Of a stretch of 64,000 nt of DNA, positions 226 to 46,411 are shown in pieces. The translations under genes were made by a program, and so were the position numbers. The DNA lies in NCBI GenBank assembly GCA_050950765.1, contig JBMNIF010000001.1:179619-243618 (forward strand), given 5' to 3'. This stretch comes from Bdellovibrionota bacterium (GTDB lineage: Bacteria; Bdellovibrionota_C; UBA2361; JAAYZI01). The stretch's first letter is position 1. The number at the start of each line of letters is the position of its first letter. The notes under the pieces are model-generated. The model worked only from the letters and a program-made list of their open reading frames with translations, was not told the origin of the DNA and ran no database searches.

Positions 226-720
226 ATAATGGCAGATCTGGCTGCAGGGTTTAGTCGGCTTTGTAGCTGGATAATGGCAGATCTGGTGCCACCCTTCAAC
301 TTTGCTGCTTTAAGCTGCGATCTGGTCGCTAGTATCTGGTGCCACCCATTAATTTGGCTGGATCTGATAGGTTTCGGCTAGCTTTAGTTTTGGTGCCACC
401 CTCTAGGGATGGCGGACGGTGGGCTAGCGTCTGGTGCCACCCTCTAGGGACGACGGATCAGCTACGGGGGTTAAAAAACTGGTGCCACCCTTCCAGTTGG
501 CTGGATTTGCAGATTTTGTGGCTTTGGCTTTGGTGCCACCCTTCAGCGTTGCCGCTTTAAGCTGAATATCTGGTGCCACCCTTCAACTTTGCCGCTTTAA
601 GCTGCGACTGGCTTTGGTGCCACCCTCTAGGGATGGCGGACGGTGGGCTAGCGTCTGGTGCCACCCTCTAGGGACGGCGGATCAGCTACGGGGGTTAAAA
701 AACTGGTGCCACCCTTCCAG
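226..720 (+). repeat. Tandem array 1 of core GGTGCCACCC (reverse orientation relative to most other arrays), 10 cores
   Basis: Cores at 285, 338, 392, 433, 481, 532, 572, 616, 657, 705; spacings 53,54,41,48,51,40,44,41,48; 392-496 is nearly identical to 616-720. Confidence 0.95.
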
Positions 721-3158: not shown

Positions 3159-4349
3159 TTATGTTGTTAGTATTTTGCTATCTATTCTGTCATATAAGCT
3201 GTTTAAGTCACGTTGAAAGATCTCAAAAGTGTAACGTTCTTCGGCAAGTTCGTGTGCGGCATTCCCTATTTTATGGCGCAGATCTGGATCTGAAATTAAT
3301 TTTTTTAATCCTTGCGCATAGCTATCGGGTGTGGGATCTGTGAGGATTGAAACGGTGTTGTTTAAAACCTGTGTGTGCGTTGGAAGATTTGTCGCAATGA
3401 TTGCTTTACCGGAATGTAGATATGAATATATTTTCATGGGAGTGTTGTTCCCACGTAGTCTGGGAGAAGCTAAAATGTCAGCTTGAAGGAGGTAGCTTTT
3501 TAAACGATTGACAGCTCTACGTCCTGCAAGGTGTGCTCTATCTGAAAGATTTAATGCTGAAATCTTTGTTTTCCCTGCTGAGATATGTTCATCACTACCA
3601 CCAATAATAACGAGATGTGCTTTATCAAAGGAGTGCGCAATTTTTGCAAAAGCATCAATCAAAAGACCGCAGCCCTGATAAGGTTCAAGGTTCCCGACAT
3701 ATAGAATAACCAAAGAATCAGGGGGGATGTTTAATTCTTCTCTAAGCGTCTGCTGTGAAGTTGTTTGAGAATTATCTAATCCAAGGAGAGATATGTCTCG
3801 TAAGATCTGAGTGTCCTGTGAACCCTGATTGTAGGCAATGGCAGCGAGAGCATCGCAAACAGGAACTACTGCCATACTGTGTTTAATGGCTCGTCCTTCA
3901 AGAAAAGAGAGTAGCGGGAGAAAAGGACGAAAAATGCGCCATTTTTCAGTTAATTGTTGTGCTATTGATGAATCCATGTCGTAGATATACGGAATTTTCC
4001 AAAATACTTTGATTAGCATTGCAATGAAAACAGATTCTTCTACGGCATGAACTAAGTCATAAGGATTTTTTCTATTTTTCCAAACTAGCTTCAAAGCAGT
4101 AAATAAAAAAATGATATCGCAAAAGAGTTTTTTAACGGAGATACCAGGGGCGATATTGTTTAGAAAAAAAGGTGCTTTGATCCGTATATGATTAACATTC
4201 GGTATGCTTATGTCAGTCCCTTCGTGATATGTTAAAAGATCGATAGAGTCTTCTTTTCTTGTGGCAAGAACTTGAACTGCTAATCTAACAGCTATCGGAG
4301 TGCCACGGTCTTGAAAAAACGGTTGTGGTGCTAAAAATAAAATACGCAT
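3159..4349 (-). CDS. Glycosyltransferase family 4 (GT-B)
   Basis: MRILFLAPQPFF start (ATG 4349; the ORF-track extension to 4445 lies in repeat DNA), YVGNLEPYQG and NTPMKIYSYLHSGKAIIAT GT4-like motifs. Confidence 0.85.
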   Translation of the reverse strand: MRILFLAPQPFFQDRGTPIAVRLAVQVLATRKEDSIDLLTYHEGTDISIPNVNHIRIKAPFFLNNIAPGISVKKLFCDIIFLFTALKLVWKNRKNPYDLVHAVEESVFIAMLIKVFWKIPYIYDMDSSIAQQLTEKWRIFRPFLPLLSFLEGRAIKHSMAVVPVCDALAAIAYNQGSQDTQILRDISLLGLDNSQTTSQQTLREELNIPPDSLVILYVGNLEPYQGCGLLIDAFAKIAHSFDKAHLVIIGGSDEHISAGKTKISALNLSDRAHLAGRRAVNRLKSYLLQADILASPRLRGNNTPMKIYSYLHSGKAIIATNLPTHTQVLNNTVSILTDPTPDSYAQGLKKLISDPDLRHKIGNAAHELAEERYTFEIFQRDLNSLYDRIDSKILTT

Positions 4350-4391
4350 AGCATGGGATGATAAAACAAAAATTGTAAAAAGGACACCCGA

Positions 4392-4448
4392 CTTGTCCCT
4401 GGTGCCACCCACCAGCGCTAAGCCCTTGTCACTGGTGCCACCCACCAG
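4392..4448 (+). repeat. Two GGTGCCACCC cores downstream of the RAYT-like gene
   Basis: CTTGTCcCTGGTGCCACCCACCAG twice (cores at 4401 and 4434, 33 bp apart). Confidence 0.9.
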
Positions 4449-4660
4449 TACGACCTGCTTTGCTGTTTTTGCTCTTCTGACAGCCTTTTTTCTGCTTATG
4501 CCACTGCCAGCAAGCTTAGTTCACCTTAAATTTCCTTAAATTTGATACTACAACTTACTATTAATTGACTATTTTCAGATTTTAGATAGATCTTCCCTGT
4601 TGAAATTTAGATTTCATATTATTAACGGGTCAAAAAAGCAGCTTTTTTACATTACTTTTT

Positions 4661-5629
4661 TCAGGTCGCCACCCCGCAAAGCCTACCTACAATAGGCATA
4701 CTCGGACGAAATGCCCCATAAACAAACTTGGCTGAAATATCACCTTGCTTCCACTTCTTCCAAGCCTTTCTACACTCTTCACAAAAAGCCTTATATTCTG
4801 CTATCGCCTTTATCCGTAACTCCTTAATCCAACAAATTAAATACGGCGTACGTGTCTTCTTCTTAGGTACATACGCAATATTTATCGATTGCTGCTGCAC
4901 TTTACGCATCCCCATAAAATGCCCCTTCCTTTCAAGTGCAATCTCTTCTTCCCTTTTTGAAATCTCTGTCATTATTGTTTTAAAGATCTCTTCAGACGTA
5001 AGGTTTTTTGATTCTTCAAAACAATTCTTCCAAGCATCAGGGGTAATCTTAAGCTCATGACAAGTGTGCGGAAACATATTAAGCATTTTTAATAAAATAG
5101 CATCGCTTATTTTATGAAGTCTCTGCGGTAACTTACGTAAATTAGTAGAAGAGGTATACTTACCCTGCACTGTTAAAGAACCTGATTTATACATTCTAAA
5201 ACTACTACACCCTTCCCAATCAGCAGCGTGTGCAACGAGTCCTGCTTTTACAGGATTTATATAAATATAGACTATCTTATCGATAACATCATTATGAGTT
5301 ACCAAACGTTGCTCCTTAAAACGTCCATCCCAAACGTTTCTCCTATATTGCGGTGTTAGTTTCTTAATAGCACGTGCAACTGCACTTTCCATCTCTCCCA
5401 TAAATGCAGAGATGTGCTTTCCTTCACCAACTAATATCATGTGAAAGTGGTTACTCATCCAATTAAAATGAGCAATTCTAACACGATGGTGCTCTTGGCA
5501 ACGTGCCATAATCCCTAACAGGATCCATTTCATAAAAAGGCGTGCTAGAAATGGCAAGCCAGATAATGTTCTATTGGTGACATGTACCACCATTTTATTA
5601 GGATTTCTCCTATCTCTACGATTTCTCAT
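4661..5629 (-). CDS. REP-associated tyrosine transposase-like HUH (Y1) endonuclease with long C-terminal extension
   Basis: VHVTNRT, HUH motif MSNHFHMIL, VWDGRFK, catalytic-Tyr motif YIYINPVKAGLV and DWEGCSSF match the RAYT/TnpA(REP) Y1 pattern; flanked by repeat arrays. Confidence 0.85.
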   Translation of the reverse strand: MRNRRDRRNPNKMVVHVTNRTLSGLPFLARLFMKWILLGIMARCQEHHRVRIAHFNWMSNHFHMILVGEGKHISAFMGEMESAVARAIKKLTPQYRRNVWDGRFKEQRLVTHNDVIDKIVYIYINPVKAGLVAHAADWEGCSSFRMYKSGSLTVQGKYTSSTNLRKLPQRLHKISDAILLKMLNMFPHTCHELKITPDAWKNCFEESKNLTSEEIFKTIMTEISKREEEIALERKGHFMGMRKVQQQSINIAYVPKKKTRTPYLICWIKELRIKAIAEYKAFCEECRKAWKKWKQGDISAKFVYGAFRPSMPIVGRLCGVAT

Positions 5630-5779
5630 AAGACAACTCCAGAAAAAAAATAAAAATAATTAATAAATTGGCAGAATTGCCGGTTAGCTTGGCAGGATTG
5701 CCAAATTCTAACGCCTAATTGTCGCTAGAGTTGGGATTTTATTGTGGGTAAAAATGAAAAAAGTTTGGAGATTGGGATT

Positions 5780-6252
5780 GGTGCCACCCTTTAGTGCGAG
5801 GATGGTGTTAGAAAAAGAAAAGAAGGGTGGCACCAGTTTTACCCCCGTGAAGACCTAGCTGATCCGTTTTACAGTTCCAGCCCGTCCGATTGTCCCTGAA
5901 GGGTGGCACCAGTGACAAGCCTGCAACAATTGCTGATTTAAGGGCAAAAAGAAGGGTGGCACCAGTTTTTTAACCCCCGTGAAGACCTAGCTGATCCGTT
6001 TTGCAGTCCCAGCCCGTTCAGTTGTCCCTGAAGGGTGGCACCAGTGACAAGCCTGCAATAATTGCTGATTTAAGGGCAAAAAGAAGGGTGGCACCAGTTT
6101 TTTAACCCCCGTGAAGACCTAGCTGACTCTGTTTTCAGTTACAGCCCGTTCGGTTGTCCCTGAAGGGTGGCACCAGTTTTTACCCCCGTGAAGAGCTAGC
6201 TGATCCGTTTTGCAGTCCCAGCCCGTCCGGTCGTCCCTGAAGGGTGGCACCA
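5780..6252 (+). repeat. Array 3 upstream of the RAYT-like gene: one inverted core plus 7 tandem GAAGGGTGGCACCA cores
   Basis: Inverted core at 5780; forward cores at 5825, 5901, 5954, 6033, 6086, 6165, 6242 (modules 76,53,79,53,79,77 bp). Confidence 0.95.
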
Positions 6253-6265
6253 GTGCTAACCTCGT

Positions 6266-7342
6266 TTAATAGATAACAGGTGTTGTGATTCTCGGGGGGT
6301 TATTGCCGTATCTTGTGATGGTTGCTTGCATAAAGTAAGAAGCTTGGTTCGGATATGCAACGCGGGCGATAACTTCATAGGTGTTATTGCTCGTGCTGTT
6401 TGTAGTAATGATGCTCTTTAGTTCATTCTGTTGTTCTTTTGCAACTTCTGTAAGGTTGAAGAATTCATTTATATCATTAAATTTTCCGTTTTCACGGCTA
6501 TTTCGTTCTTCTATAATCCTTTCAGCGGTGTCTTCGTCAATTTTATCGTCTAGCGCCATCAGAATTTCTTTTGGGGCAATGTTAACGTCGATTTTGCCAC
6601 TTCCTCTTGTTGTAATAAATGGCACAAGTAGGCGTAAGCGTTGTGGAGTAAAGCCTGGAATGTTTGAAAGCTCTTCACGTTCAATAATACTGGCGTAATC
6701 GTTTTTAAATTCACTACCCTCAGGCAAGGTATCTTCACATCCTTTTACGATGACGCCGTTTATAGTATCACTGAAAGATGTTTTATCTATATCCAAGTAA
6801 TCTATTAAATTCCCCAACATCTCTTCTGGAGTGAAAACTTTATTCCCACATAAACCAGAAGGATTTTTTTCTTCTATGGCACCGAGATCAAGAATTGTGA
6901 AAAGTCGTAAACATACCTCTCGTAACTTCGTAATTGTGTTGGAAACGGTCGTATTATTTTCAACTCTATGAATTGGAAAACTACCCGTTATTGGTGTAAT
7001 TTGAAGCGCTATTCTGGCACCTTCATTAGGATCCACTCCAAAAAATCCTAAAAATTCAGGAGGGATTTCTAGCCCGTCTTTAAACGGCTCCCAAGCTTCT
7101 GTATTGATAATATCTTGACTATTTGTGTTTTTGCCAACCTGAATCAAGCTAGCAGCATAGTTTGTCAGAGATTTGAGAATGTATTCCGCTTTTAGACGAT
7201 TTTTAATTACACCTATTGATTCAGCTTGTAAAAATGTTGAATGCGCCAAGCTTGTCACAAGAATTGTGGCAAAAGCTAAAAACATAATGACCAGCAGTAA
7301 GACAACAGCGTTTTCTCCCTTTTGTTGATTGCGGTGTGTCAT
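6266..7342 (-). CDS. gspK: Type II secretion system minor pseudopilin GspK-like protein
   Basis: N-terminal pilin-like TM (QKGENAVVLLLVIMFLAFATILV), NLIDYLDID, EELSNIPGFT, GKIDVNIAPKEILMAL HhH-like motifs typical of T2SSK. Confidence 0.75.
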   Translation of the reverse strand: MTHRNQQKGENAVVLLLVIMFLAFATILVTSLAHSTFLQAESIGVIKNRLKAEYILKSLTNYAASLIQVGKNTNSQDIINTEAWEPFKDGLEIPPEFLGFFGVDPNEGARIALQITPITGSFPIHRVENNTTVSNTITKLREVCLRLFTILDLGAIEEKNPSGLCGNKVFTPEEMLGNLIDYLDIDKTSFSDTINGVIVKGCEDTLPEGSEFKNDYASIIEREELSNIPGFTPQRLRLLVPFITTRGSGKIDVNIAPKEILMALDDKIDEDTAERIIEERNSRENGKFNDINEFFNLTEVAKEQQNELKSIITTNSTSNNTYEVIARVAYPNQASYFMQATITRYGNNPPRITTPVIY

Positions 7343-7554
7343 TCTTTCCTTATCTCCTTAATCGAGATGATAGATATTTTTACAAAGAATAACCACTCCT
7401 TTCATCTCCTGACTTCTGAGTTTTTTGTCTAAAATTATTTTTTTAAGGAGTTAACTTATTAAAAAATAATGAGAAGTTTTGAAAAACATTAAAAATGCCT
7501 AAAATATTTTCATATAATGCTATCCACCAGTAGGCTAAAAGCAGGTGCCACCCA

Positions 7555-12014: not shown

Positions 12015-12399
12015 TTTGTCTCCTATTTTTTACTGTCCCGTAGACTACGGAAACATGTCTACAGAACAAAAAATGTCAATGGTTTTTTAAAACTTTCATA
12101 AAAACTTAATTAAATAAATATGTTGGAGGAAATATAATATTAGAAAATCTAAATATGAAATTAAATTATTGATATGGACTACATAAAAAACGGGAATTTA
12201 GGTCGTTATTGTGGACGAAAAATTTTTTAGGTGCTTCAAGTGCGAAGTCGGGAAAAGTAGGTGCCACCCATCACCTAGAAGCAAGGTTAAAAATATAAAA
12301 AAAGGGCAGCACGTATTTTTTGTTTACGTACCGCCCTCTACATTCTATCACATAATTATATCTGCAAAGGTAATAAAAGCTCAATAAAACAGGGGTGTT

Positions 12400-12732: not shown

Positions 12733-13164
12733 AATCCACCCACAGTTAATTATCTTATAATCTTTTAGCTCAGTACTAATAATTTTAAAAACTAAAGTCT
12801 AATCTAACAGCAGCGACTGACAATCCCTTGTCGAATCCTCAAAAAATAAAGCGTTGTTTGTTCTGCGAATATCTAAGCAACGCTAAATATTTAATGAGGA
12901 ATGCTATCCATTGCGTGCGGTCTCGGAGTCATTTCAAAAAGCAAAAACTAGACCAAAACGTAACAGCTTGAATTCTTATCTCTAAGAGTATAAAGGTTGG
13001 AGCTTTTTAGACAATGGATATTTAAAATTTATTTTAGTATCCTGTAAAAACGGGGACTTGGCGGGGTGTCGTATCGATATACATAGTGTCGTTCTTTCAA
13101 ACACCTGCCGACTTTAGCTATGTTGCTTATATCGGTGATGTTATCGGAAAATAAAAGCAATAAA

Positions 13165-14517
13165 ATGGGTAAAAAAGAGCAGATCTTAGATAAATTGATG
13201 GCTATTAAAGCAGAAGGCGGGTGCCATCGCTGTGGAACTTGTGTCGGAGTCTGCCCGAGCGCAGCTCTTGGAATCGATTCAGATTGTTATCCGCAGATAA
13301 AAGACAGGAGCGCTTGTATCGGTTGTGGCAAGTGCTTAAAAGTCTGTCCTAGCTCTGATTTTGATTGTAATGCTTTTACGCAAAAAAAACACGAATATGA
13401 TTTTAACCTTACACACGGTTTTTTTGATTCTGCTATACTTGCGCATGCTACAAATAAAGTTATCAGAGAAACAGGATCTAGTGGTGGATTTGTTACGCAG
13501 ATACTATTGTCTTTATTAAATAGTGGTGAAATAGATGGCGCTTTAGTTGTGGGTAATCGAGAGAACGAAGAGCAGATCTGGAGTGGCAAGCCGCAAATCG
13601 CTAGAACAGCAGATCAGATTATCGCAGCAGCGCAATCAAAATACACCATTGCATCGACTAATTCTGTTCTTTCTGAGATTATTAAAGTTGATGGTAGGTA
13701 TGCTGCGGTCGGATTACCATGTCAGATTCAAGGGATAAAAAAAGCGATCTCTCTTGATAAGCGTCTAGCAGAAAGGATCGTGCTGACCATAGGGCTTTTT
13801 TGTCATTCTACATTAACTCCCGAAGCTTATAAAAGTGTCTGGGATATTTTAAAAATAGATGAAGCTCATCGTTTCATCCCAAGACTGGGGAAGCACCCTG
13901 GTACGCCGTATCTTGAAATGATTAATGGTGAAAAAAAACCGTTATATTTCCCCGAAAAAAAAGGATTTCGTCCTAATTCCACAGAGATGTTAAATGTCTT
14001 GTTTAGACTTTATACACAACAGCGCTGTTTCTTATGTCACGATGCCCTCTCAGAGTTTGCTGATATTTCAGTAGGAGATCCCTATCTGCCGGAACCGCAA
14101 GGAGTTTCTTTAAAAGATGGTTGGAGCTTTGCTTTAATTAGATCAGAACTCGGACGTAAAGCTTTAGATCTGTCACTGCAGCGAGGAGATATCGTTATAA
14201 AAGAGCTTAGCCAAGCTGAAGCATTAAAATGTAATGCTGTCATGATACGTGAGAAAAAGGATAGAGCTTATTATCAAATTAGGAAGAATCGGAGTGTTGG
14301 GAAGTTTTCACCAATCTATACGCAATCAGAAACAGATATCCCTTGTCTAAATAGAACTCAGAAAATAAAAGTAAAATTAAATCTTTTGTCACATTGGTTT
14401 TGTGTGCGTCCTGCTGGAAGAGATCGCGCGCTACGTTTCTTTTTGGGGAATGTTGGCTATCAATTTTTAAAATTGAACCATTATAGAAAAACTTTTGTTA
14501 AAAAATTTAAACGATAA
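13165..14517 (+). CDS. Coenzyme F420 hydrogenase beta-subunit (FrhB/FdhB)-like Fe-S protein
   Basis: Two CxxCxxCxxxCP ferredoxin motifs, SSGGFVT, VGLPCQ, IGLFC, RCFLC, ADISVGD; ATG 13165 preferred over 13120. Confidence 0.85.
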   Translation: MGKKEQILDKLMAIKAEGGCHRCGTCVGVCPSAALGIDSDCYPQIKDRSACIGCGKCLKVCPSSDFDCNAFTQKKHEYDFNLTHGFFDSAILAHATNKVIRETGSSGGFVTQILLSLLNSGEIDGALVVGNRENEEQIWSGKPQIARTADQIIAAAQSKYTIASTNSVLSEIIKVDGRYAAVGLPCQIQGIKKAISLDKRLAERIVLTIGLFCHSTLTPEAYKSVWDILKIDEAHRFIPRLGKHPGTPYLEMINGEKKPLYFPEKKGFRPNSTEMLNVLFRLYTQQRCFLCHDALSEFADISVGDPYLPEPQGVSLKDGWSFALIRSELGRKALDLSLQRGDIVIKELSQAEALKCNAVMIREKKDRAYYQIRKNRSVGKFSPIYTQSETDIPCLNRTQKIKVKLNLLSHWFCVRPAGRDRALRFFLGNVGYQFLKLNHYRKTFVKKFKR

Positions 14518-15335: not shown

Positions 15336-15456
15336 TTTTAATTTAGTAGAGTAATCGCTCGCACCTTTAGGGGCGCTGCCTTTTGCTAATATATTGATAT
15401 TATTAAGTTGCTGTAAACTTAAAGTTTGAATGCCTTAATTGTAAAGCGTTCAGCGC

Positions 15457-15617
15457 TGAAGGGCGGCACTTTTTACCTTCGTAAAAATCTAGCTAATTCG
15501 CTTTGCAGTTGCACCCCTTTTAACTGTTCTTAGAGGGTGGTGTTTCTACCTCCGTTAAAATCTAACCAATTCGTTTTTTAGTTGTAGCCCCTCAATCGTC
15601 ATTGGTGGGTGGCACCA
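15457..15617 (+). repeat. Degenerate core/module-A repeat cluster between methyltransferase and GT4
   Basis: GAAGGGCGGCAC, GAGGGTGGTG and TGGTGGGTGGCACCA (core 15607) separated by module-A-like spacers. Confidence 0.85.
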
Positions 15618-16943: not shown

Positions 16944-17102
16944 TGAAGGGTGGCACTTTTTACCTTCGTAAAAATCTAGCTAATTCGCTTTGCAGTTGCA
17001 CCCCTTTTAACTGTTCTTAGAGGGTGGTGTTTCTACCTTCGTTAAAATCTAGCTAATTCGCTTTGCAGTTGCAGCCCGCTCAATTGTCACTGAAGGGTGG
17101 CG
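16944..17102 (+). repeat. Degenerate core/module-A repeat cluster; first 108 bp is a direct repeat of 15457-15564
   Basis: 16944-17051 vs 15457-15564: 2 mismatches by manual alignment. Confidence 0.9.
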
Positions 17103-17107
17103 TTAAG

Positions 17108-17787: not shown

Positions 17788-18270
17788 GAGGGTGGCATTT
17801 TTAACCCCCGTCAAAATCTAGCTGATTCGTTTTGCAGTCGCAGCCTGTTCAATCGTCCCTGAAGGGTGGCACCAGTGACAGCCAGCTACAAAGAAGGGTG
17901 GCACCAGATCTGCCGAATTTTGGATTTTTGCTAATGTCTTGATATTATTAGATGTTATGATTTTGAAGTTTGGATGTCCTATTTACGAAGCGTCTGCAAC
18001 GCTGAAGGGTGGCACCAAATTTTATCCCGTCTTAGTGAAGGGTGGCACCAGTGACAGCCAGCTACAAAGAAGGGTGGCACCAGATCTGTCGAATTTTGGA
18101 TTTTTGCTAATGTCTTGATATTATTAGATGTTATGATTTTGAAGTTTGGATGTCCTATTTGCAAAGCGTCTGCAACGCTGAAGGGTGGCACCAAATTTTT
18201 GACCTTCGTGAAAACTTAACCAATTCGCTTTTCAATATCAGCCCGCTCTGTTGTCCTTAGAAGGTGGCAA
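17788..18270 (+). repeat. Tandem core array (6 perfect plus 2 degenerate cores)
   Basis: Cores at 17864, 17896, 18007, 18040, 18072, 18183; spacings 32,111,33,32,111. Confidence 0.95.
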
Positions 18271-18283
18271 ATTTCTCAAAAAA

Positions 18284-20233
18284 TTATTCATACCTTAAAG
18301 CATCAATCGGTTTTAAGCGAGCAGCTTTTAAAGCAGGATAGACACCAAAAAAGATTCCAACAGCGAATGAGAATCCAAGAGCCATAAAAACTGATTCCGG
18401 TGTAACGTAAGTTGCCCAATTTTTATAGTATGACAACGCTAAACTGGCACCCCAACCACAAGCCACACCGATTATGCCGCCACAAGTGCTGATTAGGAAT
18501 GATTCTATTAAAAATTGCATTAGGATATCACGTCTCCTAGCACCTATTGATTTACGAATGCCTATTTCGCGAGTTCGTTCCGTCACGGAAACAAGCATGA
18601 TGTTCATAATGCCGATACCACCGACTAATAAAGAGATACCTGCGATAGAAGCAATTAACATTGACATGGTGCTACCCGTAGAAGTCATCATGTCTTGTAT
18701 CTCTGCCATGTTGCGAATTAAAAAAGCATCCTCAATCTGAGAAGGTGGAACTTTATGACGTTTTATGAGTAGCTGCCTTATACTTTCTTCAATGGAGAAC
18801 ATATCAGCAGCAGTAGACATTTCAACGTCTATTAAATCGATATAATTTTTCCCGAAAAGACGACGCATGGCAGTGGTGTAAGGGATAATCACAATATCAT
18901 CCTGATCCATAGGACCCGATGAGCCTTTTTCCGGTAGAACTCCGATCACACGAAAGTTAATGCGATTAATTTTAATGGTGGCACCAACCGGATTCTTGGT
19001 TCCAAACAACTCTCTAACTACGGTTACTCCAAGTAAAGCGACAGTGTCGCGTTGATCCACTTCCTGTTGATTAAAGAACCTGCCGATAGTTGGTGTGGCT
19101 GCTTTAATCTCTTCATAATCAACAGAGGTGCCTGTGATGGATGAGTTGCGATTGTTGTTTAAGTAAACCACTTGAGCATTTTGCCTGACTGATGGCGCAG
19201 CGTTTTTTACACCACTAATCTGTTTTTTAATGGCATTAACATCATCCATCGTCAGCTGAGTGACTAAGCCACTCTCGAGAGCAACACCCCCACTTTTAAA
19301 AGCTCCCGAACGAACCATTAAAAGGTTAGAACCCATCTTTGAAATCTGTTTCTCTATGGATTTTTGCGCACCTCGTCCGATGGCAAGCATCGCTACAACT
19401 GCAGCAACTCCGATTAAAATTCCCAACATAGAAAGGAAAGCGCGGATCTTATTAGCTCGAATTGATCGAATCCCCTGCCTAAAATGTTCCGATAATTCAG
19501 CTAAAAATGAGGGATGATGCGACTTTGCAGGTGAGGCGGAGTGCTTTTCTATTTGAGGTAACTGACCAAACTCTTCATCAGAAATGATCTTGCCGTCACG
19601 CATTCTGATAATGCGTCTGGCTTCCTTACCGATCTCTTCATTGTGCGTTACGATAACAACAGTAATACCTTGAGTGTTCAGATCTTTTAATAAATTTATA
19701 ATCTCACGTTCACTGGCAGAATCTAAATTACCGGTTGGTTCATCAGCAAGAATTAGAGTGGGAGTGTTGATAAGTGCTCGCGCTATTGCAACGCGTTGTT
19801 GTTGTCCACCGGATAGCTCTGTTGGACGATGTGTAGTGCGTTCCCCCATCCCGACCAAGTTTAACAGTTTGATGGCGTTAGTACGTTCTTTTAAACGACC
19901 AGAATAGACAAGGGGGAGTTCTACGTTCTCTTTAGCGTTTAATCGCGGTAGTAAATTAAATTGTTGGAAGATAAAGCCGATTGTATCTCTTCTTAATTCT
20001 GCTAACTTGTCTTCATCGTAACTCTTAATCTCTTTGCCATTAAGGATATATTCCCCCGTGTCTGCGTGATCTAATAACCCTATGACATTCATTAAGGTGG
20101 ATTTGCCAGAACCTGAAGGTCCCATAATAGCGAGAAACTCACCATCCCTGATGGTTAAGGAGACGTCATCCAGCGCATGAACATCATTATCTCCGAGGTG
20201 GTAAGTTTTTTTTAAGTGTCGAAGTTCTAACAT
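18284..20233 (-). CDS. macB: MacB-type fused ABC ATPase/FtsX permease
   Basis: GPSGSGKST Walker [27 protein letters not shown], then [24 protein letters not shown] permease. Confidence 0.9.
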
Positions 20234-22669: not shown

Positions 22670-23391
22670 AGCTTTTGCTAATGTCTTAATATTATTAACT
22701 ATTGCAATTTTAGAGTTTGGATGTCCTATTTACAAAGCGTCTGCAACGCTGAAGGGTGGCACCAGATTTTTAACCCCCGTGAAGATCTAGCTGATTCGTT
22801 TTGCAGTTGCAGCCCGTTCAATCGTCACTGAAGGGTGGCACCAGAACTGCAGCCGCCAAGATCTGACAAATCTGCTTATACTGAAGGGTGGCACCAGTTT
22901 TTTAACCCCCGTGAAGATCTAGCTAATCTGTTATGCAGTTGCAGCCCGCCCGATCGTCCCAGAAGGGTGGCACCAAAACTGCCGAATTCTAACTTCTGCT
23001 AACATCTTGATATTATTAGCAGCGCTGGTGGGTGGCACCAGTGATAGCTAGCCATAAAGAAGGGTGGCACCAAAACTGCCCGATTTTGGATTTTTGTTAA
23101 CGTCTTGATATTATTAGCAGCGCTGGTGGGTGGCACCAACGACAGGCAGCTACAAAGAAGGGTGGCACCAGATCTGCCGAATTTTAAGGTTTTGTTAATG
23201 TCTTGATATTATTAGATGTTGTAATTTTGAAGTTCGGGTGTCCTATTTGCAGCGCTGAAGGGTGGCACCAGTGATAGCTAGCTACAAAGAAGGGTGGCAC
23301 CAGTTTTTTGACCTCCGTAAAGATCTAGCCGATCCGGTTTTGTAGTTGCAGCCCGTTCGGTCGTCCCCCAGATTTCTGAAGGGTGGCACCA
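22670..23391 (+). repeat. Tandem core array (11 cores) between tolC and rpsB
   Basis: Cores at 22754, 22833, 22886, 22965, 23030, 23062, 23128, 23160, 23260, 23292, 23381. Confidence 0.95.
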
Positions 23392-36744: not shown

Positions 36745-37505
36745 CTAACTTTTTACCTCCGTAGAGATCTAGCCGAACCGTTCTGCAAGTTGTAGCCCGT
36801 TCGGTCGTTACTGGTGGGTGGCACCAGATCCACTAAGCTATCGCTGCCAATTAGGACACCCGCTTTTAGCTAAAGGGTGGCACCAACGACAGCAGCTACA
36901 AAGAAGGGTGGCACCAAAACTGCCAGATTCTAGGCTTTTGTTAACGTCTTGATATTATTAGATGTTGTGATTTTGAAGTTTGGGTGTCCTATTTGCAAAG
37001 CGTCTGCGTCCCTGAAGGGTGGCACCAGATCCAAGCCAAACCAAAGCCCCATTAGCCAGCTACAAAGAAGGGTGGCACCAAATTTTTAAACAGCCCGTCC
37101 GGTCGTTATGGTGGGTGGTACCAGTGACAGCCAGCTACAAAGAAGGGTGGCACCAAATTTTTAACCTCCAGTTTTTTGACCCCCGTTCTATCGTCCCTCA
37201 AGGGTGGCAACCAGTGACAGCCCCGATAAAGAAGGGTGGCACCAAAACTCTGAAGGGTGGCACCAAAACTACCTGATTTTGGGTTTTTGTTAACGTCTTG
37301 ATATTATTAGATGTTGTGATTCTGAAGTTTGGGAGAAAACTCTAGTGGGTGGCACCAAATTTTTGACCTCCGTGAAGATCTAGCCGATCCCGTCTTGCAG
37401 TTACAGCCCGTCCGGTCGTTACTGGTGGGTGGCACCAGATCCTCCGTCAACATCTAGCCGATTCGGTTTTTAGTTGTAGCCCGTCTGATTGTTCTTAGAG
37501 GGTGG
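36745..37505 (+). repeat. Tandem core array (about 10 perfect plus 3 degenerate cores) between convergent proA and lptB
   Basis: Cores at 36816, 36875, 36906, 37017, 37070, 37145, 37234, 37255, 37347, 37427; degenerate at 37113, 37202, about 37500. Confidence 0.93.
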
Positions 37506-45360: not shown

Positions 45361-46411
45361 TCAGTTTTTTAACCCCCGTGGAAATCTAGCCGATTCATTT
45401 TTTAGTTGCAGCCCGTCCTGCCGTCCTTGAAGGGTGGCACCAGTTTTTTAACCCCCGTGGAAATCTAGCCGATTCATTTTTTAGTTACAGCCTGTTCTAT
45501 CATCCTTGAAGGGTGGCAGCAGATTTTTGACCTCCGTAGAGACCTAACCGATTCGGTTTTTAGTTGCAGCCCGTTCAACCGTCCTTGAAGGGTGCCGTTC
45601 TTGGTGGGTGGCACCAGTGACAGCCAGCTAAAAAGAAGGGTGGCACCAAAACTGCCGAATTTGAAACTTTTGTTAACATCTTGATATTATTAGAAGTTGT
45701 GATTTTGAAGTTTGGGTGTCCTATTTGCAAAGCGTCTGCGACGCTGAAGGGTGGCACCAGTGACAGCCAGCTAAAAAGAAGGGTGGCACCAAAACTGCCG
45801 CATCCTTGAAGGGTGGCACCAGATTTTTGACCTCCGTAGAGACCTAACTGATCCCGTTTTTTAGTTGCAGCCCGTCCCGTTACTGGTGGGTAGTACCAAA
45901 ACTGCCGAACCGATAAAGAAGGGTGGCACCAAAACTGCCGAATTTGAAACTTTTGTTAACATCTTGATATTATTAGAAATTGTGATTTTGAAGTTTGGGT
46001 GTCCTATTTGCAAAGCGTCTGCGACGCTGAAGGGTGGCACCAAATTTTTAACCTCCGTAGAGACCTAACCAATTTGTTTTTTAGTTGCAGCCCGTCCCGT
46101 TACTGGTGGGTGGCACCAAAACTGCCGAACCGATAAAGAAGGGTGGCACCAAAACTGCCGAATTTTGGGTTTCTACTAACGTCTTAATATTATTAGAAGT
46201 TGTGATTTTGAAGTTTGAGTGTCCTATTTGCAAAGCGTCTGCGACGCTGAAGGGTGGCACCAGTGACAGCCAGCTAAAAAGAAGGGTGGCACCAAAACTG
46301 CCGAATTTGAAACTTTTGTTAACATCTTGATATTATTAGATGTTGTGATTTTAGAGTCTTTTAGCTCTAATGGGTGGCACCAAATTTTTCAGTTCCTAAT
46401 GGGTGGCACCA
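45361..46411 (+). repeat. Largest tandem core array (14 perfect plus 3 degenerate cores) between convergent hisS and nth
   Basis: Cores at 45432, 45606, 45638, 45749, 45781, 45811, 45921, 46032, 46108, 46141, 46252, 46284, 46372, 46401; degenerate at 45511, about 45590, 45888. Confidence 0.95.

Follow-up and report, generated by a model that had tools for sequence, protein, structure and literature searches.

What does a long HUH nuclease do in a genome in which one very short sequence recurs between genes? The question is raised by a 64,000-nucleotide (nt) stretch of a Bdellovibrionota bacterium (contig JBMNIF010000001.1; hereafter the window, meaning the whole stretch), where a gene of the RAYT type, the nucleases associated with repetitive extragenic palindromes (REPs), is bracketed by inverted copies of a short core that also punctuates large arrays. 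A first-pass annotation of this DNA had seen in it a candidate new system, in which the enzyme would excise and insert core-to-core modules in an integron-like manner. Here, we report that the ancestral unit is a gene bracketed by inverted copies of its cognate site, an 11- to 12-nt quasi-palindrome, GGGTGGCACCA(G), whose full form is a short hairpin (CTGGTG-GGTGG-CACCAG), and that this site has spread through intergenic DNA as head-to-tail arrays with few module families. Overall, we somewhat favor reading it as a system of the REPtron/TIRtron type, with a distinct long subclass of class 2 TnpA-Y1 (RAYT-like) HUH nucleases at its base and array turnover driven by nicking at the core.

An 11-nt core organizes six intergenic arrays

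Counting both strands, the window holds 64 exact matches to GGGTGGCACC (about one per kb), where dinucleotide-preserving shuffles predict 0.04. Core positions 0 to 9 were fixed in all copies, and position +10 was A in 62 of the 64. The invariant block is the 11-mer GGGTGGCACCA (62 exact copies; seven copies with one mismatch), set in a semi-conserved frame, [T/A][G/A][A/G][A/T]-core-[G/A]. All cores lie in DNA between long open reading frames (ORFs), and none is in genuine coding sequence. Those at 4401-4443 fall inside ORF 3159-4445 only if a GTG start is taken, as the gene caller likewise did in a close relative (L024); they are probably 5′ leader and not coding, because the conserved glycosyltransferase starts at M33, with its ATG at 4349-4347.

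Cores are gathered into six arrays (Table 1), each of a single orientation and strictly head-to-tail. Cutting these arrays at the cores yielded 56 internal modules, which are variable in length (21 to 111 bp), non-coding, and without a long open frame. Upon clustering, 42 of them (~75%) fell into three families: L (111 bp plus truncations, 18 copies), M (~77 to 79 bp, 13 copies), and S (32 bp, 11 copies). L-, M-, and S-type families recur in five or six arrays, the arrays differ in module order, and blocks of several modules are themselves repeated, as tandem 176-bp units at 98% identity and with 143- and 220-bp periods. The core is far more conserved than the modules, since identity within module families is 75 to 95% versus an exact 11-mer in 62 of the 64 cores. 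Most of what the first-pass annotation had described for the arrays was thus confirmed, namely head-to-tail units, an invariant part of 10 to 14 bp, and a small reusable module library in shuffled order. Its six large arrays "elsewhere" do exist, with the qualification that the count takes in the array beside the nuclease gene.

The site folds into a short hairpin in a minority of its copies. Its 5′ frames take the form [CTGAA/AAGAA/CTGGT]G, and the foldable CTGGT variants make up only 7 of the 64 copies. The CTGGTG frame gives a 6-bp stem closed by a 5-nt loop (-6 kcal/mol, z -2.3) and stands beside genes, at 4432-4449 in the window and in L038. A stable REP-type hairpin as a universal feature was rejected, as only CTGGTG-flanked copies fold. 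A strong hairpin (-13.6 kcal/mol, z -5.4) is predicted for the inverted pair of cores at 5780/5825. The near-dyad symmetry of GGTG-G-CACC also allows two direct cores to pair in single-stranded DNA (ssDNA), with the intervening module looped out. The ends of M-type modules are able to pair with the 5′ part of the core; S and L modules are not.

The bracketed gene encodes a long Y1 nuclease and is multicopy

The product of the bracketed gene is a RAYT-like Y1 HUH nuclease, as had been read from its sequence alone. Its catalytic domain (amino acids [aa] ~12 to 140) carries N60-H61-F-H63 and Y121-I-Y-I-N125-P126; the HUH histidines H61 and H63 and the Y121-x3-N125-P126 motif were invariant in an alignment of 16 homologues, and Y---NP is the class 2 (TnpA-REP-like) signature in the TnpA-Y1 classification of Quentin et al. 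(PMC6006769). The protein passed Pfam Y1_Tnp PF01797 (29.1 bits versus a cutoff of 23). With NCBIfam REP_Tyr_transpos NF047646 it scored 67.4 bits, below the equivalog cutoff of 80, and with NF033573 (IS200/IS605) 17.7 bits, below the cutoff of 55. E. coli TnpA-REP (4er8) came first in a profile search of PDB sequences (E = 7e-7), the nuclease motif aligning to its YIYINP. It was also the best match of the AlphaFold model (predicted local distance difference test [pLDDT], 88; predicted template modeling score [pTM], 0.86), with 4er8_A giving an E value of 1.1e-6 and a template modeling (TM) score of 0.70 over 143 columns; the ISDra2, IS608, and IS200 transposases followed. A tblastn search of the nuclease against PLSDB plasmids gave no match.

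The remainder of the protein is a conserved C-terminal domain of 170 aa (aa ~150 to 315) with invariant cysteines C266 (LICW), C283, and C286 (FCEEC); W200/K201 and R308/P309 are further motifs of this domain. It had no Pfam match even at E ≤ 1, and when modeled alone (pLDDT, 72; pTM, 0.36) it had no PDB match, the best E value being 7. A profile of the domain retrieved 644 clusters at 50% identity, 286 of them at E ≤ 1e-10, and among the full-length proteins in this search, the domain always occupied positions ~150 to 320 of a ~320-aa protein. PF08299 proteins were only distant matches (E 1e-9 to 1e-14, with about one-third of the query covered). Given 644 clusters and so fixed a place in ~320-aa proteins, the domain defines a sizeable long Y1 lineage.

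The copy number of the gene was estimated from contig k-mer depth in four metagenome runs, which were examined as assembled contigs and in which the flanking genes are identical to those of the window. The depth of 4508-5805 versus the flanks was 318 versus 55, 185 versus 37, 20 versus 3.4, and 22 versus 2.1, giving ratios of 5.7x, 5.0x, 6.0x, and 10x, respectively. The high-depth contig differed from the window copy at 18 of 1,298 positions (~99% identity between copies). High-depth pieces begin at 4432/4433, leftward of which the contigs diverge into different contexts; on the right side, the inverted core at 5825-5839 is traversed by all of three ~1x variants. With the boundaries of depth and context at 4432 and ~5836, the repeated unit spans 4432-5836. 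We infer that it is present in about five to six copies or is shared with co-resident relatives. The inverted core at 5825-5836 agrees with the earlier description of a gene flanked by cores in opposite orientations; that description does not hold for the nearest upstream core, 5780-5789, which runs the same way as both downstream cores. A candidate circle or tandem joint across the unit (5795 to 4433 via 37 nt) was rejected, as it is an E-type module of another array.

The GC skew at third codon positions (GC3 skew, + strand) is -0.54 for the nuclease gene and +0.18 to +0.32 for its neighbors at 0.7-7.3 kb; genes at 7.5-12 kb also have a negative skew. These values suggest that the nuclease unit may have been inserted recently, perhaps with a local inversion at 7.5-12 kb.

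A multicopy unit with ~99% identity between copies is also what a selfish 1.4-kb insertion sequence (IS)-like element would give, one bounded by terminal inverted repeats (TIRs) and inserting at or beside its own 12-nt site. The arrays would then be inert minisatellite-like DNA, subject to slippage, unequal crossing-over, and gene conversion by the host. The higher-order tandem blocks (176 bp at 98%; 143- and 220-bp periods), the decayed arrays with mutated cores, and the relatives that can have gene and TIRs without arrays all agree with this explanation, whereas passive decay does not predict a core that stays invariant while modules diverge by 5 to 25%. We regard it as a substantial but unlikely competitor, and two further lines of evidence that bear on it are given below.

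The core accompanies diverged nucleases

We read the contigs of seven homologues at 41 to 52% identity (P0003, P0005, P0008, P0009, P0013, P0018, and P0019). In all but P0018, the identical 11-mer was found as inverted gene flanks, with TGGTGCCACCC at 95 to 290 nt upstream, often in two tandem copies, and GGGTGGCACCA at 195 to 420 nt downstream. P0018 carried a one-base variant, GGCTGGCACCAG, at the corresponding places, and the 18-mer hairpin form of the window (4432-4449) also flanks P0009. Homologues at 27 to 35% identity, from Bdellovibrionota, Oligoflexia, and "Deltaproteobacteria" metagenome-assembled genomes (MAGs), had different inverted repeats at equal distances from the gene (AATAGGTGCCA, ATAGGTACCAACC..., GTGCAGCCCTA, and GTACCGGGTTACA), several of which share a TGGYACC-like element. 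At L010, L011, L012, L007, and L023, the diverged gene has its own core beside it in short head-to-tail runs. As the site is fixed among diverged proteins and co-varies at greater distance, the pattern is that of a cognate enzyme and site. The tie between nuclease and core that had been claimed for the window thus extends to its relatives, and these comparisons indicate that the two very probably form a cognate pair of the REPtron/TIRtron type.

Diverged long nucleases also occur as paralogues in single Bdellovibrionota and "Deltaproteobacteria" MAGs, four to five each in one MAG (L009/L010/L019/L023) and in another (L012/L015/L016/L017/L020). Paralogues within one such MAG differ in core, e.g., GTAACCCGGTAC versus GTAACCCCATACCAG, as is seen where several RAYT/REP pairs coexist.

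A generic core-N19-49-core scan of metagenome contigs returned mostly unrelated coding tandem repeats in high-GC DNA, the only true non-coding arrays being L071, L088, L134, L124, L087, and L117. These share the 11-mer at variable spacing in contigs with GC contents of 0.61 to 0.64 (L088, L134, and L071) or 0.37 to 0.46 (L124, L087, and L117), and no nuclease homologue was found on those six contigs. Arrays in contigs of such different GC suggest that the core site and the enzyme family may be widespread. At L079, L078, L115, L140, L142, and L070, the 11-mer recurs at regular 18- to 72-nt periods inside long open frames; these are coding tandem repeats, unrelated to the arrays, and a trap for pattern searches. 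Matches of this kind, together with the formal overlap of ORF 3159-4445 with two cores, raise the question of whether the window arrays are themselves a coding tandem repeat or an assembly error. Such an artefact is effectively refuted: the window arrays are variably spaced, lie between ORFs without a long open frame, and were recovered with their flanks in independent public assemblies and runs. A literature search on the core sequence found only unrelated primer-type matches.

Arrays change by whole modules between close strains

Orthologous rpsB-upstream arrays were taken from contigs encoding identical RpsB. The window array reads M79-K53-M79-L65-S32-L66-S32-L100-S32-M89, and L044 agrees with it. 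Two independent assemblies, L045 and L046, read M79'-K53-L100-S22-M79-M78, and in L047, X53-K53 is followed directly by the flank. The L045/L046 genes are ~97.6% identical to those of the window, and the unique flanks match at 213 of 220 and 198 of 202 positions. Every difference nevertheless corresponded to a whole core-to-core unit, and some modules had been replaced, not lost. Because strains this close differ by whole modules, module turnover is much faster than point divergence. We are confident that the arrays change by whole modules, as the first-pass annotation had supposed. When metagenome contigs were searched for exact matches to the right-hand junction of the rpsB array, none was found.

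Two further loci differ between strains. In L046, the 17.9-kb array is extended at its end by two additional M units, in whose cores precisely CCA is missing (GGGCGGCA|AATTT). When L046 1-300 was compared with window 18183-18290, three M units were seen, with cores GGGCGGCA/GGGTGGCA followed by AATTT, the CCA being gone; such inactivated cores are still duplicated as units. At the gene locus, a ~99% relative (L024) has two inverted cores versus seven in the window. L024 1-110 does not match window 6252-6400 (the gspK-like 3′ end) beyond its short upstream array, which means that either the DNA was rearranged at the array or the metagenome contig is chimeric.

How do these changes bear on the competing explanations? 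Chimeric M modules between strains accord with passive satellites around an IS-like unit. Modules at an orthologous locus swapped for those of other families go beyond the gain and loss that this explanation provides for, and an identity of 11 to 12 bp is short for RecA-dependent exchange, which also counts against it. Whole-module replacement would also follow if modules were excised core to core and moved mostly as ssDNA circles able to re-integrate at any core, in an integron-like shuffling. Such circles would account for module families shared by five or six arrays in differing orders, for the uniform orientation within each array, and for the ability of direct cores to pair in ssDNA with the intervening module looped out; IS608 is known to excise as circles, and circle excision has been proposed for bacterial interspersed mosaic elements (BIMEs) (PMC3333891). 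Against circles stand the sole head-to-tail joint across the gene unit, which proved to be another array module, and the micro-duplications described below, which together with many internally truncated modules favor synthesis-dependent events over clean cut-and-paste. Moreover, the modules carry no genes, which leaves the integron analogy formal only. We judge this strict model to be rather improbable, and free ssDNA circles to be just as doubtful as the main intermediate.

Micro-duplications suggest a nick in the 3′ half of the core

Perfect tandem duplications of 11 to 15 nt were found directly 3′ of cores at relatives' loci in ten cases, nine in non-repetitive DNA and the tenth (L023) within a simple-sequence run. 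The duplicated sequence is locus specific, and its left edge lies constantly within the core. This edge falls at GGGTGGCA|CCA (+8) in six cases, five of which have no phase slack at all, at +6 in two cases, and at +7 in one. One such duplication, in L027, is absent from L026 and L029, sister copies of the same element. In the independent non-coding metagenomic arrays, duplications start at +5 (GGGTG|GCACCA, six cases) or at +8. The window has corresponding irregularities, with a truncated M followed by CCAG+M at 37168 and, at 37202, a core in which one nucleotide has been inserted at that point (GGGTGGCA-A-CCAG). Decayed cores lack exactly the CCA that follows GGGTGGCA.

Since the duplication edges have no microhomology, these events are not slippage-like; zero microhomology and a left edge in the core thus count against host slippage in passive satellites. 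The edges suggest a candidate nick site, mostly GGGTGGCA^CCA. Overall, we put at about even the chance that the enzyme catalyzes or initiates array changes by nicking within the 3′ half of the core.

On the core-nicking reading that we favor, the enzyme would bind the core on ssDNA and nick it in its 3′ half, most likely at GGGTGGCA^CCA, with the tyrosine becoming linked to the 5′ end (5′-phosphotyrosine) and a 3′-OH left free. A host polymerase would extend the 3′-OH, and rejoining of the displaced 5′ end after about one helical turn would leave a micro-duplication. If the reaction ended at the next core, or if strands were exchanged between cores, exactly one module would be added, deleted, or replaced, and homologous recombination or gene conversion between similar modules would act on top. 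Rolling-circle-like amplification and circle excision were already proposed for E. coli BIMEs by Ton-Hoang et al. (PMC3333891).

Positions, surroundings, and other identities of the arrays

The coordinates of the features are given in Table 1. The first M unit of the largest array (45362-45431) has no core, and the end units at 18183 and 37427 are also decayed, with mutated cores.

Table 1. Core-bearing features of the window and micro-duplications at other loci
Feature	Position	Strand	Remarks
Gene unit, 1405 bp, multicopy	4432-5836	-	inverted 12-mers: CTGGTGCCACCC at 4432-4443, GGGTGGCACCAG at 5825-5836
Long RAYT-like (class 2 TnpA-Y1) HUH nuclease gene, 322 aa	4661-5629	-	hidden Markov model, profile, and fold matches
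Second downstream core	4401-4410	-	bounds a 33-bp module together with 4434-4443
Gene-proximal downstream core, full hairpin form	4432-4449	-	ACTGGTG-GGTGG-CACCAGT; 6- to 7-bp stem, 5-nt loop
Extra direct core, 150 bp upstream of nuclease start codon	5780-5789	-	inverted pair with 5825-5834, 35-bp spacer
Array beside nuclease gene, 7 cores	5825-6251	+	inverted relative to gene; order M76-F53-M79-F53-M79-M77
Array, 10 cores	285-714	-	downstream of Tex-like gene; short M derivatives (48 bp), 40- to 54-bp modules, one two-module block repeated
Solitary core	7544-7553	-	next base T, not A
Solitary core	12260-12269	-	next base T
Solitary core	15607-15616	+	preceded by decayed M unit at ~15444-15540
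Decayed array, 2.2 M-type units	16944-17104	+	cores mutated: GGGTGGCACTT, GGGTGGTGTT
Array, 6 cores	17864-18192	+	S32-L111-J33-S32-L111-M; last core decayed, AGGTGGCAAATTT
Array, 11 cores	22754-23390	+	between OEP gene and rpsB; contents differ from orthologous L045/L046/L047
Array, 11 cores (one is GGGTGGTACC)	36816-37436	+	has 21-bp module
Largest array, 16 cores (two degenerate)	45432-46410	+	higher-order repeats S32-L111 and M77-33-L111
Micro-duplications, 11-16 nt, abutting core	L004 1477; L010 2259/2302/2381; L027 1535; L036 1862/-1706/-1775; L043 -11051; L071 842; L051, L066, L076, L100, L114		left edge +8, +6, or +5, mostly unambiguous in phase

The neighboring genes (window 13120-14517 and context) encode Tex, a GspK-like type II secretion system protein, a class V aminotransferase, an FrhB/FdhB-like Fe-S protein, and a MacB-type ABC efflux pump with OEP, and they include rpsB-tsf-pyrH-frr. 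Because these are ordinary chromosomal genes, the element lies in the core genome and not in an island. The organism is uncultured and is present in anaerobic-digester, bioreactor, and wastewater metagenomes; its RpsB is only 59 to 65% identical to proteins from named Deltaproteobacteria, Oligoflexia, and Bdellovibrionota MAGs.

Several other identities were tried and rejected. A known RNA or tRNA was dismissed, as Rfam at gathering thresholds and ARAGORN gave nothing. CRISPR does not fit a core of 11 nt whose "spacers" recur within and between arrays, and Rfam had no match. An integron was rejected because the modules are non-coding and 21 to 111 bp long and the ORFs beside the arrays showed no integrase, the window scan not being exhaustive. 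REPINs were set aside, since only one inverted pair (5780/5825) exists and all arrays are direct. As for replication-strand bias, the cumulative GC skew has its minimum near 12-13 kb, where the cores switch strand, and the GC3 skew is positive over 0.7-7.3 kb although the cores there are on the minus strand. No dnaA gene or DnaA-box cluster was found in the window. With these points against it, and with core orientation likewise independent of the direction of neighboring genes, the bias was rejected as unsupported within the window.

The L modules contain a sigma70-like promoter match, TTGAAA-18 nt-TATTAT with an extended -10 TG, at 45661-45690, 45944-45973, and 46307-46336 (+). The match covers 10 of 12 positions and is a consensus match only; six matches were counted (two overlapping per site) versus 0.9 expected, and some cassettes may thus import promoter activity. 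Could the arrays then have been selected for a function in the host, for instance as binding-site banks for a dimeric DNA-binding protein or as modular promoters and terminators, with the nuclease gene sharing or exploiting the site? GGTG-G-CACC forms a 9-bp dyad of the kind that dimers typically bind, a promoter-like match occurs three times in one array where 0.9 were expected, a core followed by a T-run resembles a weak terminator, and all arrays are intergenic. In many lineages, on the other hand, conserved inverted copies of the site flank the nuclease gene even without arrays, and no candidate binding protein was identified. A fixed regulatory role is also argued against because array content differs between close strains. 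We consider this explanation improbable, more so than either passive satellites or ssDNA circles.

Discussion

The activity of the enzyme on the core, the position of the nick, and the role of the enzyme in array turnover are what we infer here, and a number of observations weigh against this reading. The core is too short and mostly too weakly self-complementary for the stable hairpin needed by characterized RAYTs, and the common CTGAA(G) frame does not fold (-1.2 kcal/mol, z +1.2). Core orientation follows neither the GC3 skew nor the direction of transcription in the window; as it ignores both, the replication-fork bias of the IS608 type is not evident there. One M module of L045 is a chimera of two window M modules, so that recombination within modules also occurs, and both chimeric M modules and higher-order tandem blocks can arise without the enzyme, by RecA-type recombination or slippage. 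The excess depth of the gene unit could come partly from co-resident relatives and not from paralogues, and metagenomic assemblies of arrays could hold errors, though L045 and L046 agree. Finally, two relatives on 19-kb contigs have the flanking pair only and no arrays; for this reason, the enzyme does not always build arrays, and the massive arrays are a lineage-specific amplification.

Among known systems, the E. coli REPtron (TnpA-REP; Ton-Hoang 2012, PMC3333891; Messing 2012, PDB 4ER8; Corneloup 2021, PMC8266576) has the Y1 HUH and Y---NP motifs in common with the present enzyme and provides its best structural match. Both genes are bracketed by inverted cognate repeats, with 60 further cores in the window in our case, and both repeats are abundant in intergenic DNA, where they form mosaic arrays with a limited linker library. 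The amplification models proposed for the REPtron (circle excision; nick, extension, and rejoining) fit the present data. The present protein is twice the length of E. coli TnpA-REP and carries an unrelated C-terminal domain of 170 aa, and its site is an 11- to 12-nt core or a 17- to 19-nt mini-hairpin, whereas the E. coli REP is a 35- to 40-nt bulged palindrome. The site also departs from the classical REP definition (20- to 40-nt imperfect palindrome with a 5′ GT[AG]G tag), as it is without GTAG. A limited module library is shared with BIMEs, in which REPs alternate whereas the units here are head-to-tail. The gene is multicopy, whereas classical RAYTs are single copy (Bertels et al. 2017).

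TIRYT/TIRtron (Di Nocera 2013, PMC3733652; equal to subclass 2.1) and subclass 2.3 (Quentin 2018, PMC6006769) likewise comprise longer RAYT-like proteins, which carry NH[YF]H, Y---NP, and extra C-terminal domains. TIRYT genes resemble the present one in being flanked by short TIRs and not by classical REPs, and some of these TIRs form dimers or clusters. In contrast to the helix-turn-helix/Bac_DnaA_C domain of subclass 2.1, the C-terminal domain here has no Pfam match, and the core does not fit the TIR motif GGGGWSAS. As far as published descriptions allow comparison, subclass 2.3 is similar in length (~325 aa), multicopy status, and NH[FY]H; by the same descriptions, it differs in having a catalytic core of 172 aa and YVDLNP, versus ~128 aa without insertions and YIY[IA]NP here. 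Subclasses 2.1 and 2.3 were reported without REP-like families, whereas the present site occurs about once per kb. Tandem repeats of uniform orientation beside RAYT genes are also known from the REP/REPIN clusters of Pseudomonas fluorescens SBW25 (Bertels & Rainey 2011, PMC3116915) and from head-tail REP dimers and clusters (Di Nocera 2013, PMC3733652). The SBW25 arrays have alternating module lengths of 112 and 72 bp and up to 12 units (PMC3116915); their units are near-identical and REPINs (inverted doublets) are the main replicating form, whereas the present arrays are mosaics of several families, with inverted doublets almost absent.

IS200/IS605 elements (IS608 and ISDra2) share the catalytic fold and chemistry and are multicopy; with ssDNA circle intermediates and site-specific insertion on the 3′ side of a short target, they could produce head-to-tail insertions. 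They differ in having a ~150-aa TnpA with Y---Q and dissimilar subterminal hairpins, versus 322 aa, Y---NP, inverted 12-mers, and no tnpB here. The likeness to integrons is formal, in that arrays of units are bounded by recombination sites processed as folded ssDNA; the present system has no IntI, attI, or attC (an integrase was looked for among the ORFs beside the arrays), and its 21- to 111-bp modules are non-coding. The term integron-like in the first-pass annotation can therefore stand as an analogy only. In the Neisseria intergenic mosaic elements (NIMEs), too, a short invariant site (dRS3) separates a small library of 50- to 150-bp modules in intergenic mosaics, the difference being that dRS3 is a 20-bp inverted repeat tied to other recombinases and prophage integration. 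To our knowledge, no Y1 HUH enzyme has been implicated in NIMEs.

To speak of a new system, as was first done for this DNA, is an overstatement, since tandem REP clusters, BIME linker mosaics, TIRYT/TIRtron genes, and circle and rolling-circle-like models have all been published (PMC3116915, PMC3733652, PMC6006769, and PMC3333891). What is new is a long Y1 lineage, with a C-terminal domain that matches nothing in Pfam or the PDB, tied to a high-copy repeat family; a minimal, strictly conserved 11- to 12-nt site in exclusively head-to-tail mosaic arrays, with a multicopy gene unit; and direct evidence of cassette turnover between strains, together with footprints that indicate where the nick would lie. 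No REPs had been reported for the long subclasses in published surveys, and the present data connect a high-copy repeat family with a long TnpA-Y1 lineage.

How RAYTs spread and amplify REPs is still debated a decade after the first biochemistry. The present system is unusually readable in this respect because its 11- to 12-nt site is strictly kept across proteins that are only 41 to 52% identical, its cassettes turn over between near-identical strains, and its footprints predict a nick to the nucleotide. We tentatively propose, as a possibility that is itself unlikely but worth stating, that the long Y1 enzyme acts as an "array writer," which would use the 11-nt site like a rolling-circle initiator and terminator to add, delete, and swap non-coding intergenic cassettes, some of them promoter- or terminator-like. 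If the enzyme does write the arrays, this would support the rolling-circle-like model of BIME amplification, the cleavage site would be readable directly from genomic micro-duplication footprints, and a compact, programmable ssDNA nick-and-join tool could result. For the organism itself, such an enzyme would be an HUH-based, ssDNA-level counterpart of integron cassette shuffling, diversifying regulatory regions between strains.

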